DNA of 64,000 bases from an uncultured Nitrososphaerales archaeon. Lineage in GTDB: Archaea > Thermoproteota > Nitrososphaeria > Nitrososphaerales > Nitrososphaeraceae. The stretch is taken from assembly GCA_963841565.1 (NCBI GenBank), contig CAWJCY010000012.1:160001-224000 (forward strand), given 5' to 3'. The stretch's first letter is position 1. The number at the start of each line of letters is the position of its first letter. The translations under genes were made by a program, and so were the position numbers. Under the pieces are notes generated by a model. It ran no database searches and was not told the DNA's origin. It saw nothing but the letters and a program-made list of their open reading frames with translations. Below are positions 3,698 to 49,943 of the stretch, piece after piece.

Positions 3698-5026
3698 ATG
3701 AAAGTATCCATTTCAGGAATCAGAGGTGAGTATGGAAATGATTTGCTATCAACCGATGTGGGTAAGTTCACCAGATCTTTTCGGCGACGTTAATAAAAAG
3801 CAGTAATTCCTGTATTGTCTCGAGGGATACTCGACCATCGGGTCAAATCTTAGCTTACGCAACCTTAACCTCGCTATTGGAACAAGGAGTCCAAGTATTT
3901 TACCTTGATATTGCCCCTACTCCTATCACATTTAGGGAAGCAAGAAAACATAAAGGTGGAATAATAATAACTGCTTCACATAATCCCTTGAATTGGAACG
4001 GGCTAAAATTCATCTTGAATGGGAGAGGAATATCTGAGCAAGATTTAGAAAGTATACTTGCATATAAAGAGCTTCGTCCAAGTACACCAGGATCAGTATT
4101 TCGAACTACTTCCTCATATGTGGATGATGTATTGAACTTTATGCAGGACAGAAATCATTCTTATAAAAAAAGGATAGGACTAGATCCCGGTGGTGGAGCC
4201 GCTTGTAGGCACGTAAACATGTTATTTCATGAATTAGGCAACGATTATTTAGCTATTAATGATGCTTACGGTATATCCTCAAGGGGTACCGATCCAACGG
4301 TTGAAAACCTGCACGAGTTAGGTTCATTAGTAACGAATAATAAATTATCACTTGGGTTTGCATTTGACCTAGATGGAGACAGGGTAGTCGTAGTAGATAG
4401 ATACGGTAGAAAAATGGAGCCAGATGCAACTCTGTTACTGTGTGTTGGTGCAGCAATTGACCAAGGTGCCCGGAAATTTGTTGTGAGTTTGGACACAAGT
4501 CTTGCTCTAGAGAAATTTATCAGGTATTCAGGGGGGCAGATCGTTTACTCTAAAGTAGGAGAAGCGAATGTTGTTAGCAAAATGATAGAGACAGGTGCTG
4601 ATGCAGGAGGTGAAGGAAGGCAGCGCTGGCTACATTTCTCCCAACTTCAACATGTGTAGAGATGGATTACTAGCAAGTGCTTTGATCTCAGGCTTAGAAG
4701 AAGAAAAACAAGAGAAATACCTTCATTTCATTAGAACTTACAAACAGCAAAGATCTAAGATCTATGTTCCTAATTCAGCGAAATTCAAAATTATCAACGA
4801 GTTGGTTGAGCCCCTACGAAAAATCGCTACTGAAACCATCCTTGACGATGGTATAAAGGCACTGTTAGATGAAAATTCATGGATTCTAGTAAGACCATCA
4901 AATACAGAGGATATCTTGAGGATTTCAGTCGAGTCGACCGTAAACAAAACTCACGATTTGTTCGAGTTTATAAAAGCAAAGGTAATCGCCATTAATGAGA
5001 GAATCAAGGGAACAGCAGATAATTAA
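3698..5026 (+). CDS. Phosphomannomutase/phosphoglucomutase family (two frameshifts, near 3780 and 4620)
   Basis: MKVSISGIRG N-terminus at 3698; RDTRPSG, TASHNP (phospho-Ser), DLDGDR (metal) and GEGSSAG (after repair) motifs; C-terminal VRPSNTE. Confidence 0.88.
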
Positions 5027-11607: not shown

Positions 11608-12069
11608 CTATCTAAGCCCCGGGATCTCCAATAACTTAGAGGAAGGGAGGTTGATGAGATTCTCTTGCCTATCATCCTTAGATATCTCTTCAAATTCTAT
11701 GGTGATCTCAACTGGTCCTTTAAATCGTTCACTAATTTCGTTGGCCAATTTCGCTATTTCATGAGGAGCTGTGAATTCCTTTGATCCGTTGAGAAACACT
11801 CGGCTTTGGCGGCGCAAGATTTCTCCTCCGAAGTTATCGTGCAACATTTCAATCAATTCATCTACTATGTTCTTTGGAACATCATTATAGTAAATTGCTA
11901 ACCCATGAACAGGTTCCTTGTCATACGGTGTCCCATATCTATACCAAAAAACTCCGAAATGCTCGTAATCTCCTTGCAAGCATTTAATCTCCCAATGATT
12001 AGCCCTTTCTAATGGATAAGTCGCCACAAACAAGTCTTCAATTGTGAGTCGCCAATACCTAATCCGCAT
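11608..12069 (-). CDS. Hypothetical protein
   Basis: 153-aa ORF with protein-like composition; no motif recognised. Confidence 0.7.
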   Translation of the reverse strand: MRIRYWRLTIEDLFVATYPLERANHWEIKCLQGDYEHFGVFWYRYGTPYDKEPVHGLAIYYNDVPKNIVDELIEMLHDNFGGEILRRQSRVFLNGSKEFTAPHEIAKLANEISERFKGPVEITIEFEEISKDDRQENLINLPSSKLLEIPGLR

Positions 12070-12567
12070 GTTAGAATCTGCTATTAATTCGGTATAATAA
12101 GGTGATGCCGTTTACAAAGCAATGCATACAGTCAAATACCGAAAAGTACCTCACTTTTGTTCTTTTTTTCGGATAACTAATTCAAAGATTTAGGGTTCAT
12201 CAGACGGAGAATCGATGGTATTTGAAAAGTCTAGAACCCAGATCTCTTTACATAAATATGTACAAAACTGCAGCTCATCACTTAAATCATAAAAATGCAA
12301 TGAAAGGAAAGAACGACAGATTAGGTATCTGTTTAGGTTTTTCTTACCATAAATCCGTTCCTAGCCCTGCTCATAAAGATTTAGAACTTAATGTTAATGA
12401 TCATTAGACCTAACAGGTCATCCTTCCTATTTTAGAATATTTGTACATTGACACATTGAAAAGAACCAGAGCGTAGGATCCTCTATGGTTCAGGTTAATT
12501 AGCTTTCTGCAACTTGGTCCCTATATCATAATATATATGGAAACTGAGGAATAATCCTTAAAGATAA

Positions 12568-13078
12568 TTGAACCACAAACAAAATACTAAATTTGATCAC
12601 AAATCACCACGTATTGGATTACTTCACGAAATGGAGAAGCATTTTGATAATAGCGATATTGAGTACTTCAAACAATTGCTTCATCATGAAGACAATGTAA
12701 TCAGAACAAGAGCAGTATGTATACTTGCTGAAATAGGCGGCAGGGGAATCGTAGATGCTATAAGTGACACTTTGACTAATGATAAAGATTCGTTGGTTAG
12801 ACATGAGGCAGCTTTTGCGTTGGGACAGATGGGGTTCACTGACGCATTGACTACGTTGTCCCATTCAATTAGTTCAGATCCTAGCATGTTTGTCAGGCAC
12901 GAAGCTCGCTATCGCAGTAGGCGTCATCGGTTCAGAGCGAGGGAGAGATCCGCTCCAGCAGGCATTATCTGATGAAAGCCAGGAAGTCCGTGAATCAGCA
13001 AAGATAGCTCTTGCTAATCTAGACTATATCTCGAGTATTAAGAGTAAAGGAAAATTCGCCAGGTTGACAGGCGGATGA
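12568..13078 (+). CDS. HEAT-repeat (PBS-lyase/DOHH-like) protein, +1 frameshift near 12907
   Basis: Four HEAT repeats: IRTRAVCILAEIG, VRHEAAFALGQMG, VRHEAAIAVGVIG (after removing one C) and VRESAKIAL; about 169 aa when repaired. Confidence 0.85.
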
Positions 13079-13090
13079 GAGGGATCTTCC

Positions 13091-13115
13091 TGATTTTTCG
13101 GCCCGACGAAAATCA
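13091..13115. terminator. Hairpin between convergent HEAT-protein and purP genes
   Basis: TGATTTTTCG...CGAAAATCA imperfect inverted repeat between the two stop codons. Confidence 0.35.
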
Positions 13116-13129
13116 TCTAATGACGAAGG

Positions 13130-14170
13130 TTATGTAAGAATAACTTTCAAATCAGTATTCTTCTGAGCATTTTTTATTTCCAAGGCAATCCTTCTACCCA
13201 TACTCATTGGATCATCATAGATAAGGCAAGAATAAGGCGAACCCATCACATATAGGTTGGTGCCCGCAACAATCCTCGCAGAAAATTCAAAAGTAACGAA
13301 ATTCCCTAACGCATCGCAGACGCCTTCAAGGCAAAATGGACCTATCATACCTGGAGGAACCAGCTGTTTGGCGGCCTGCACAAAGTCCTCACCCATCGAA
13401 AACACTTTTCCCAGTAAAGACTCTCTTAGGACGAGAGGGAAATTTCCAATTACATTGTACGACGAGGTCTGAATTCCTATCCCCAATTGATGGCTGGCCG
13501 GTATCCTACCCAGTCCATCTATATCAGTTTCGTATCTTCTGTCAACGCCAAGGAATTCTAGCTCATTGTTGATTGCAGAATAAAAATAATGAAGATAGAC
13601 CGGAACTCCCTTTACATATTCCTGAATATATAGATCATCTTCACTCTTGATTACATTTTGCTTAATTAGATCACGTGCCCCATTTTCAAAAGTTTCCCTA
13701 TTCCAAGCTAAGAAATATCCTCTCCCTCCAGCAGCTCCATGTAGCTTCACAATACATAGCCGATCTATGTCGTGCTTCGATTTCACAGTCTGAGGAGTAG
13801 CTAATCCAGCACTCATCATCAATTCTTGTTTTAAATTTCTATCTGCTTCCCATCTCAATATCCATTTGTTACCAAAAATAGGTACAGAGAGCTGTTCAAT
13901 ATAGTCAATATCTGAATATGCTATAAGCGATCCGTGAGGTATCAAAATACAATCATTTTCATTAAGATATTCCTGGCATTCTGTGGATATTGTTTCTGAA
14001 TTCTGTCCAATTTCGAAGATTTCATCTATAAACTTGAATCGCTTGTATAGAGACGTCCTGTCCTTTTTGCACACGAGAATTGTTTTGAATCCTTCATCCT
14101 TTGCTCCTTTCATTAATTGCAATGCACAATGAGAACCGATAGTTGCAATGCTTAGATCCTGACTCAGCAA
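13130..14170 (-). CDS. purP: PurP-family FAICAR synthetase (formate-dependent, ATP-grasp)
   Basis: IATIGSHCALQ, GGRGYF, DRRYE, GPFCLE and FEFSARIVAGTN motifs. Confidence 0.93.
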   Translation of the reverse strand: MLSQDLSIATIGSHCALQLMKGAKDEGFKTILVCKKDRTSLYKRFKFIDEIFEIGQNSETISTECQEYLNENDCILIPHGSLIAYSDIDYIEQLSVPIFGNKWILRWEADRNLKQELMMSAGLATPQTVKSKHDIDRLCIVKLHGAAGGRGYFLAWNRETFENGARDLIKQNVIKSEDDLYIQEYVKGVPVYLHYFYSAINNELEFLGVDRRYETDIDGLGRIPASHQLGIGIQTSSYNVIGNFPLVLRESLLGKVFSMGEDFVQAAKQLVPPGMIGPFCLEGVCDALGNFVTFEFSARIVAGTNLYVMGSPYSCLIYDDPMSMGRRIALEIKNAQKNTDLKVILT

Positions 14171-48227: not shown

Positions 48228-49943
48228 TAGTATTTCCTCTCAACTGGTGCATACCTAGTTACCCTTACTGGATGCCAACGTAATTTAGGTTCTTCATGAG
48301 CGTAGTACGCAAGCGTATGTTTCAGATAATTTACGTCGTCTCGACTTGGATAATCAATTCTTGCATGAGCTCCCCTTGACTCTTGGCGGTTTAGTGCGCC
48401 CATCAAGACAATTTCAGAGATTCGTGCTATTGAATCGATTTCCATGACATTGATGTAGTTAGTGTTGTATTCGTTGGCCTTGTCGTCCACATGCCTCCAA
48501 GATGTACGTTTCAATTCCTTTACTTCTTTTAACGCTTCGGCTAACGTATTTCCATCCCGAAACACATATGCCTTAGAATCCATTAAATCGGCAAGTCTTT
48601 TCTTGATTTCGTAAGGATTCATATCGCCTCTACCGTGGAATATGCCATCATAGATCCTTTTCTCCTCTTCTAATACTTGTTGTTCAGGCACAGTCATATT
48701 TCAATCCTTGGCCCTTTGAGCATATTCAGCAGCATGCCTTCCAGTAATATTACCCCATACGAGACATTCAGATGTAGAGTTTGCTCCCAGCCTATTTGCA
48801 CCATGGGTACTATTGCAGGCTGCTTCCCCAGCACACCAAAGGCCACTCATTTCTGTTTCACCTTCAATATTTGTATGTATTCCTCCCATCATATAGTGGC
48901 AAACAGGTCTAACCTCAATTGGTTCATGAATTACATCAATCCCTGAAAACTTTATACCTATTTCCCTAATTCCTGCTAATTTTTCTTTAATGCGTTCACC
49001 TCCCAGATGTGAGAGATCGAGCTTAAGACATTCTATTCCAGTCTCGTGTTTGAAGCCCCTCCCTTCTTGTATCTCACGAATCATAGCCCGGGATACAACA
49101 TCTCTGGGAGCGAGTTCAAGTTTCTCTGGGGCATATCGCTTCATGAATCGCTCTCCTTGATTATTTACAAGGTATCCGCCTTCTCCTCTGGCACCCTCGG
49201 TAATTAAGATCCCAGATGGCAGAATCCCACTTGGATGAAATTGCACAAATTCCATATCTTTTAGTGCTAATCCTTTTCTGTATGCCATATCCAAGCCATC
49301 TGGTGTTGAAGAATGAGCATAGGTAGAAAAGCCGTAGATTCGACCCGCACCTCCAGTACAAATGATTCCAGCCAAAGACTTGATTATTATGAACTGGCCA
49401 GTCTTCAACTCAATAGCTGTGAATCCTCGAAAACTAGATCCATCAGATACGATCGAAGTACAGAACCATTCGTTTAGAAAATGGATGTTCTCATGTTTCA
49501 GGCAAGTATCATACAAAGTTTGCATCTCATAAAATCCTACCTTATCTTGAGCATACGTCGCACGAGGGAATGAGTATCCCCCGAATTTCCGCTGATCGAT
49601 CCTTCCATCAGACCTTCGCGACCATGGCATTCCCCAATGATCTCAGCTGATATATTTCGTATGGTACGTTGGAGACTAGCCGTTCTGCAACATCTTGGTC
49701 AGCGAGAAAATCACTACCTCTAATTGTATCATAAATATGAGATTCTCTATTGTCTCCTTCTTCTTCAAATAGCACTGCGGCTGTTCCCCCTTCCGCAGAA
49801 ACGGAGTGAGAACGCATCACCTGAACTTTAGAGATTACAGCTATCCTCAAACCCTTGTCCACTGACGCAGCAGAAATAGCAGCTCGAAGTCCCGCTAGGC
49901 CAGATCCCATTATTAAAACATCATAGGAGAGAACCTCAGTCAA
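48227..49943 (-). CDS. sdhA: Succinate dehydrogenase flavoprotein (+1 frameshift near 49643, in-frame TGA at 48701-48703)
   Basis: GSGLAG, RSHSVSAEGG (FAD-His), QFHP, TEGARGEGG, HYMMGG, HGANRLG and ESRGAH motifs, spread over three ORFs. Confidence 0.93.

Follow-up and report, generated by a model that had tools for sequence, protein, structure and literature searches.

We analysed a stretch of 64,000 nucleotides (hereafter the window) from an uncultured archaeon of the Nitrososphaeraceae (contig CAWJCY010000012.1 of assembly GCA_963841565.1, positions 160,001 to 224,000), and found at 12568..13078 on its + strand a gene for a 169-residue protein of four HEAT repeats that corresponds, residue for residue, to one half of eukaryotic deoxyhypusine hydroxylase (DOHH). 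It is very probably an intact gene of the DOHH lineage. Our favoured reading, to which we assign a probability of about 0.5, is that it encodes a half-size enzyme that acts as a homodimer and is a candidate hydroxylase of the deoxyhypusine of aIF5A. An initial annotation, made from the letters of the window, had proposed a half-size DOHH whose homodimer could rebuild the di-iron centre, and our analysis supports this proposal as a candidate.

Hypusine is made on a single protein, and an essential one. According to passages of four papers (PMC3306375, 2012; PMC5178350, 2016; PMC6105217, 2018; PMC8153317, 2021), archaea have the enzyme of the first step, deoxyhypusine synthase (DHS), Sulfolobus and other Crenarchaea have been reported to contain hypusine and Haloferax to contain deoxyhypusine, and no archaeal orthologue of DOHH had been found. 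A full-text literature search, the original DOHH cloning and mutagenesis papers excepted, returned no report of an archaeal DOHH. The statement in the initial annotation that none has been clearly identified holds for the passages of these four papers and falls short in two other respects. The automatic pipeline of the Joint Genome Institute (JGI) has put the name "deoxyhypusine monooxygenase" on 17 among the 120 relatives listed (the remainder are called "HEAT repeat protein" or are unnamed), and full-length look-alikes of about 280 residues occur in Nanoarchaeia-type metagenome-assembled genomes (MAGs). A half-size DOHH look-alike is known to automatic annotation and not to the literature searched. 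The presence of a conserved, single-copy look-alike of this kind in cultured aerobic ammonia oxidisers makes the archaeal DOHH gap testable.

Four HEAT repeats and two His-Glu motifs

The + strand has two open reading frames (ORFs), 12568..12972 and 12890..13078, whose frames differ by one base. Taking CGCT at 12907-12910 as a single step joins them into one frame of 169 residues, which ends at the stop codon TGA at 13076-13078. This is the four-HEAT protein of about 169 residues that the initial annotation had obtained by removing one base near 12907; the read-through contains exactly the four repeat strings that were quoted, and the two His-Glu motifs are indeed 32 residues apart. The features of the gene are as follows.

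12568..13078, + strand: whole gene; its 169-residue product has four HEAT repeats and two His-Glu motifs once the extra base is passed over; predicted TTG start
12694..12765, + strand: repeat 1, residues ~43-66, VIRTRAVCILAEIGG...; model helices 43-56 and 59-71; aligns with RFRALFxLRN of DOHH
12802..12807, + strand: first His-Glu motif, H79-E80 (CAT GAG), in repeat 2 (LVRHEAAFALGQ); aligns with H56-E57 and H207-E208 of human DOHH
12898..12903, + strand: second His-Glu motif, H111-E112 (CAC GAA), in repeat 3 (FVRHEAAIAVGVIGS); aligns with H89-E90 and H240-E241 of human DOHH
12907..12907, + strand: additional C, which shifts the frame; most likely an indel introduced in assembly
12980..13036, + strand: repeat 4, residues ~138-156, EVRESAKIALANLDY; model helix 138-156
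13055..13075, + strand: C-terminal tail F163...T167-G168-G169, invariant in 49 of 49 alignment rows

The joined protein (P0001) matched the Pfam families HEAT_2 (E 3.3e-29), HEAT (2.7e-13) and HEAT_PBS (1.5e-12), with weaker matches for the separate pieces. Its monomer model, with a predicted local distance difference test score (pLDDT) of 90.9, consists of an N-terminal helix (residues 9-27), four hairpins and a short C-terminal helix. Conservation was read from an alignment (A2) of 49 rows from a protein search, at no more than 80% mutual identity, the first row of which is an intact orthologue 88% identical to P0001. The initial annotation had staked its proposal on the conservation of the His-Glu motifs in orthologues, and both were present in all 49 rows. 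Indeed, L76-V77-R78-H79-E80-A81-A82-F83, G86-Q87, F108-V109-R110-H111-E112-A113-A114, G118, F163, T167, G168 and G169 were all invariant. The tail follows the pattern (K/R)F..(L/M)TGG in the family, ending in Gly-Gly; the proteins of five more distant Nitrososphaeria genomes retain both His-Glu motifs, and those from one family of the class (f18) end in RAPRP instead of LTGG.

A repeat-for-repeat match to one half of DOHH, which had also been claimed, was recovered when A2 was compared with 22 eukaryotic DOHHs by hhalign (probability 99.6%, E 1.1e-24, 113 columns, 35% identity, N half). Human DOHH (4d4z) was the best natural chain of the PDB by sequence (phmmer, 75.7 bits, E 4.4e-20), against 25.8 bits for YibA and 21.0 bits for MTH187, and it was also the best natural chain by fold (Foldseek, TMq 0.71, top of the list). 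Repeat 1 (IRTRAVCILA, against RFRALFxLRN in DOHH) and repeat 4 (EVRESAKIALANL, against EVRETCELALxRI) are nearer to DOHH than to the generic VRxxAAxALGxIG, and repeat 1 is without the generic ALG turn, as in DOHH. Passages of a review (PMC9117371) place H56, H89, E90, H207, H240 and E241 of the human enzyme in the diiron centre, and E57, E90, E208 and E241, with two glycines, in contact with the deoxyhypusine side chain. The aligned equivalents, H79, H111 and E112 for the metal and E80 and G86 for the substrate, are all invariant. G86, with Q87, aligns with the glycine of the human LGQ turn; because a glycine here is also generic to HEAT_PBS repeats, only E80 is informative for the holding of the substrate.

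Eukaryotic DOHH (yeast Lia1, EC 1.14.99.29, PDB 4D4Z/4D50) thus shares with the half-size protein hairpins of the HEAT_PBS type, a pair of His-Glu motifs in each four-repeat module, at identical columns of repeats 2 and 3, and the character of repeat 1 (R-x-R-A...L) and repeat 4 (EVRE(S/T)..AL). It differs in having about 300 residues and eight repeats in a single 4+4 chain, whereas the half-size protein has four hairpins in 169 residues and would need two chains to form the dyad. In addition, the spacing of the His-Glu motifs is 32 in the half-size protein and 33 in eukaryotic DOHH, repeat 3 reads HEAA(I/V) rather than HEAAE, and the extra N-terminal helix and the invariant C-terminal F..(L/M)TGG tail are found in the half-size protein only. 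The DOHH holoenzyme contains two Fe and forms a peroxo-diiron(III) intermediate that is long-lived. Protein and HEAT_2 searches of the source genome, which gave one locus each, found no second DOHH half elsewhere.

The protein could also be read as non-catalytic, a HEAT scaffold, an adaptor or a protein for metal binding or sensing, in which the His-Glu pairs hold a metal or a partner and carry out no oxygen chemistry. PBS-lyase-type HEAT proteins (CpcE/CpcF, NblB, E. coli YibA, MTH187) and the alphaReps derived from them have the same repeat type and the same fold, HEAT_PBS proteins are mostly binders, the artificial alphaReps were the top PDB matches by both sequence and fold, and the gene is in no operon with any pathway enzyme. 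Raw scores against the family profile overlap as well, with DOHH halves at 45-91 bits and the best generic HEAT segments at 27-86 bits. Because generic segments and alphaReps score as high, score alone was not used as evidence, and the case rests on the His-Glu columns and on repeat-specific features. When 64 four-repeat modules were aligned, the columns of H79, E80, H111 and E112 were 100% His or Glu in three DOHH-type groups (17 ammonia-oxidiser-type rows, 16 halves of the archaeal proteins of about 280 residues and 22 eukaryotic DOHH halves), whereas the commonest residue at these four columns in 8 generic HEAT segments reached only 25-50% (V, S, R, N). We take these columns to be the positions that alphaRep libraries randomise, on the variable concave surface. 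In 147 generic HEAT proteins with 1676 repeats, 6 repeats had His-Glu at these two positions, and one protein had an adjacent His-Glu pair. PBS-lyase-type proteins accordingly lack His-Glu pairs at the variable positions and, with the alphaReps, form continuous solenoids, not a dyad. Within the set of sequences compared, consecutive repeats with two invariant His-Glu pairs at hypervariable, concave positions were confined to the DOHH-type groups, bar that one generic protein; their spacing is maintained at 32, against 33 in eukaryotes, and the dimer model described below sets them face to face. We consider a non-catalytic role improbable on these grounds.

Identity as a phycobilin lyase or NblB was rejected on the equivalog cut-offs of NCBIfam: the protein scored 48.5 bits against a cut-off of 300 for NblB and 23.7 against 330 for CpcE, and it also missed those of CpcF (17.9 against 220 bits) and CpeY (18.7 against 600 bits).

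Modelled pairing and the history of the halves

We modelled two copies of the protein together, using alignment A2 and including two Fe. The homodimer model, of the kind that the initial annotation had suggested, passed its controls: the interface score from aligned errors (ipSAE) was 0.88, 0.88 and 0.87, against 0.40 for the best of three controls, and both His-Glu motifs were in the interface. The runs shared at least 82% of their contacts, with a partner pLDDT of 90. Of 30 proteins solved as pairs, 20 reach the score mark, as does 1 of 23 solved as single chains; these counts apply only roughly to a job with its own alignment and a ligand. The modelled interface is symmetric (residues 12-27, 43-55, 74-76, 79-80, 83, 106-108, 111, 138-157 and 162-169), and tail residues 162-163 and 166-169 take part in it on the partner chain. 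The contacts of lowest error join residue 146 with 44 and 47, and residue 139 with 76 and 79, and repeat 4 rests against repeats 1 and 2 of the other chain. The model supports pairing and does not show it. We think it fairly probable that the protein works as a metal-bridged homodimer.

We infer iron binding, pairing, substrate and product along the following lines, the pairing resting on the model. In repeats 2 and 3, the two His-Glu motifs would lie on the concave face, and two copies would pair about a two-fold axis with their concave faces turned to each other. Each copy would contribute H79, H111 and E112, making six ligands, the counterparts of H56/H89/E90 and H207/H240/E241 in eukaryotic DOHH, for one two-iron, O2-activating centre per dimer. 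E80 and G86 match the human residues that hold the deoxyhypusine side chain. The DHS of the organism would place deoxyhypusine on aIF5A, the most likely substrate, and the half-size enzyme would convert it to hypusine. If the homodimer works, a two-iron centre would be built across a symmetric HEAT interface, and the protein would be a living model of the pre-duplication ancestor of eukaryotic DOHH.

The model also bears on the start of the gene. We favour TTG at 12568 over the first ATG (12632), since residues 12-27, which precede this ATG, are conserved and appear in the modelled dimer interface. R15 is kept in at least 90% of the 49 alignment rows, and M22 is the start in many database gene calls, giving a protein of 148 residues.

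Natural fusions offer hints of pairing that are independent of the dimer model. Two modules are joined in one chain in P0126, a 363-residue tandem of ammonia-oxidiser-type modules with four His-Glu motifs. It was the sole useful nearest relative from a profile search of 1.8 billion representatives, the top 150 of which, ranked by summed score, were nearly all long multi-repeat HEAT proteins. Its model fitted 4d4z with a TMt of 0.81 over 305 columns, against at most 0.50 for continuous eight-repeat alphaReps. Used as a query, P0126 returned first 9 proteins of 200-225 residues with a half-size module (P0271-P0279) and, below these, mostly eukaryotic proteins named DOHH (30-34% identity over 70-80%), with unnamed proteins and archaeal proteins of about 280 residues interspersed among them. 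The N-terminal 40 residues of P0126, modelled at low confidence, start with a hydrophobic segment that resembles a signal, and could be either a gene-calling artefact or a real leader.

The look-alikes of about 280 residues (P0281, P0297 and others) carry four His-Glu motifs at a spacing of 32, and were located in three species-representative MAGs, named Candidatus Nanoarchaeia, archaeon UBA583 and "uncultured Methanosarcinales" (loci L025-L027). These Nanoarchaeia-type (DPANN) proteins are archaeal and share with the half-size protein both the LVRHEAAF.LG motif and the spacing of 32. Unlike it, they have two modules and four His-Glu motifs per chain, V(K/I)HEC/HEG is the second motif in each half, and the tail is PYSGKK.F. 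A gene for a NOG1-family GTPase (ribosome biogenesis) lies directly downstream of the look-alike, and convergent to it, at all three loci, a neighbourhood that points weakly to translation.

L025, 4841-5902, - strand: NOG1-linked locus
L026, 5425-6534, - strand: NOG1-linked locus
L027, 5941-7005, - strand: NOG1-linked locus

A quick maximum-likelihood tree of the modules (64 modules, 147 columns, LG+C20), with support from the Shimodaira-Hasegawa-like approximate likelihood-ratio test (SH-aLRT) only, set all His-Glu-bearing modules apart from 8 generic segments (95). Eukaryotic N halves grouped with eukaryotic C halves (95); the N and C halves of the Nanoarchaeia-type proteins grouped with each other (99), and not with the ammonia-oxidiser singles; and both halves of P0126 came together (87) within the ammonia-oxidiser clade (98). 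When the tree was rooted on the generic segments, the half-size forms were basal to the double-size ones, in keeping with the earlier suggestion that the protein may resemble the pre-duplication ancestor of DOHH. A single shared doubling, with all eukaryotic and archaeal N halves set against all C halves, was rejected by an approximately unbiased (AU) test (difference in log-likelihood 49.8, p 0.0017), to be read with the caveats, shared by the tree, that the group was named after the tree had been seen, that the sequences are short and that the archaeal rows are of skewed composition. At face value, these sequences suggest that the module doubled three times, independently, as would be expected of a protein that works as a pair. 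Gene conversion between the halves would leave the same pattern as such independent doubling.

A wider and rather doubtful proposal follows this line further: the half-size homodimer would be the ancestral DOHH and the working hypusine hydroxylase of aerobic ammonia-oxidising archaea, from which the eight-repeat single chain arose by at least three tandem doublings (one in eukaryotes, one in Nanoarchaeia-type archaea and one in a relative of the ammonia-oxidiser family). If this were true, eukaryotic DOHH would descend from an archaeal half-size gene, and some archaea would make hypusine by eukaryotic chemistry.

The substrate and the case against hydroxylation of aIF5A

The source genome encodes both DHS and aIF5A. 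Two DHS genes (PF01916), divergent and about 1 kb apart, lie on the same contig as the HEAT gene, about 100 kb from the window:

G000:C12:58430-59287, - strand: DHS gene (L022), outside the window
G000:C12:60201-61097, + strand: DHS gene (L023), outside the window

Two DHS matches were also found in 4 of 5 other Nitrososphaeria genomes, with one partial match of 51 positions (G084). One aIF5A, with the loop SKPGKHGSAKAR (SKPGKHGSAK), is encoded on contig C2 and was found by TIGR00037; PF01287 gave no aIF5A match in the source genome. We give deoxyhypusinated aIF5A close to an even chance of being the substrate.

The main competitor is a homodimeric two-metal HEAT oxygenase of the same DOHH lineage with another substrate, such as a different modified lysine or a polyamine, or else a lipid or quinone intermediate. 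This would fit the lack of linkage to DHS or aIF5A in six genomes, the presence of an uncharacterised 153-residue protein as the constant neighbour (17 of 19 loci), the absence of the repeat-3 Glu of eukaryotic DOHH, and the invariant C-terminal TGG tail, which is without a DOHH counterpart. However, the invariant E80 and G86 align with human residues said to bind the side chain of deoxyhypusine, DOHH is the sole function known for the lineage, DHS and aIF5A are both in the genome, and the NOG1-family GTPase gene beside the look-alikes of about 280 residues, at 3 of 3 loci, points to translation. We regard another substrate as unlikely, and as the strongest of the alternatives; were it true, the protein would represent a second known function for a HEAT-repeat diiron protein.

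Several observations, besides the overlapping profile scores, weigh against a half-size hydroxylase of aIF5A. The HEAT gene is not adjacent to DHS or aIF5A in the source genome, nor in five more distant Nitrososphaeria genomes, and the nearest DHS on the same contig in the five other genomes is at about 19 kb. The full-text literature search returned no report of hypusine or deoxyhypusine in ammonia oxidisers. Sulfolobus acidocaldarius is reported, in passages of PMC5178350, to contain hypusine, and a control search of its genome gave no HEAT_2 match; archaea can thus hydroxylate by another route, and the half-size family cannot be the universal archaeal hydroxylase. The Glu that follows HEAA in repeat 3 of eukaryotic DOHH is replaced by Ile or Val in the half-size family. 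None of the 7 genomes of genus g5, which belongs to the window's own family (f1), matched the A2 profile at E<=1e-25, and these genomes are 93-98% complete (G017, G249, G261, G280, G303, G306 and G320; G017 gave a weak hit of 35% identity). The gene is present in the rest of the family, and its absence from genus g5 is a natural loss. In addition, both the homodimer and the tandem models may echo the solved DOHH structure as memorised by the programs, the two halves of DOHH form a similar interface, the alignment behind the P0126 model contained eukaryotic DOHHs, and P0126 is known from a single metagenome sequence on one 18-kb contig.

Gene integrity, distribution and neighbourhood

Near-identical DNA carries the gene unbroken. 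Two public runs (X1 and X5), each from a different study, gave Logan contigs at least 99% identical to the window that omit the base at 12907; the X1 contig has 3 other differences in 1001 nt and the X5 contig 7 in 969 nt. One of the runs X1, X2 and X5 may be the window's own source sample, and the contigs of X2 have the frameshift site outside their coverage. Orthologues in same-genus genomes have 167-177 codons without stops, and an unbroken match of at least 160 residues, free of stops, was found in 10 of 13 other genomes of the genus (one of the ten, G013, is unpublished and was excluded from all alignments); the gene is split or cut in the remaining three assemblies (G001, G004 and G012). 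A second gene of the window is broken as well:

48701..49943, - strand: SdhA-type flavoprotein gene, split mid-domain, with FAD_binding_2 positions 1-98 in 49608..49943 and positions 99-413 in 48701..49630

This is likely to be a second assembly indel error. Because two runs are without the base, 10 of 13 relatives have an unbroken gene and a second gene of the window is split, the frameshift is most likely an assembly error in a gene that is intact in nature. The alternative, a true pseudogene created in this strain by a one-base insertion, draws on the presence of the extra base in the window as assembled and on the three same-genus assemblies in which the gene is likewise split or cut. It is very improbable given the contigs from two studies without the base, the absence of further lesions in the gene, the intact invariant residues on either side of the break, and the splitting of a flavoprotein gene that looks essential, which fits assembly indels. 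A third such case may lie at 3877..4659 and 4595..5026, two ORFs of which the second has a phosphoglucomutase C-terminal domain.

The source genome (2.05 Mb in 13 contigs, 88% complete) has a single HEAT_2 locus, which is also the sole locus that matches the protein itself. Across the class, the A2 profile matched 226 of 301 genomes at E<=1e-25, counting the unpublished genomes G168, G262 and G314. As 226 of the 301 genomes match and the source genome has one locus, we class the gene as single-copy and near-core in the ammonia-oxidiser families. Matches were distributed over the families as follows:

f13: 175 of 180
f1 (the window's family): 31 of 39
f9: 8 of 9
f10: 3 of 3
f4: 3 of 4
f18: 4 of 9
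f20: 1 of 1

At the same threshold there was no match in f6 (0 of 1), f19 (0 of 14), f21 (0 of 10), f22 (0 of 8), f23 (0 of 17), f24 (0 of 2), f25 (0 of 1) or f26 (0 of 2).

In the window, purP (DUF1246/DUF1297; 13130..14170) comes next after the HEAT gene and is convergent to it, and genes for the ribosomal proteins P1, L10 and L1 are located 3-5 kb downstream. The gene mqnD is found on a different contig of the source genome. The constant neighbour lies on the other side:

11608..12069, - strand: ORF of 153 residues, upstream of the HEAT gene and divergent from it

No match to this ORF was found in Pfam, NCBIfam or the Atlas. Its relatives beside the HEAT gene, at the 17 of 19 loci mentioned above, are 54-90% identical to it, and a functional partnership between the two products is conceivable.

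An AT-rich, TATA-like stretch at ~12522-12538 was judged by eye only. A contig of the metatranscriptome run X16 spans 12974..13184 without differences, covering the 3' ends of both the HEAT gene and the convergent purP; this run is unstranded and the contig is possibly DNA carry-over, and we did not take it as expression.

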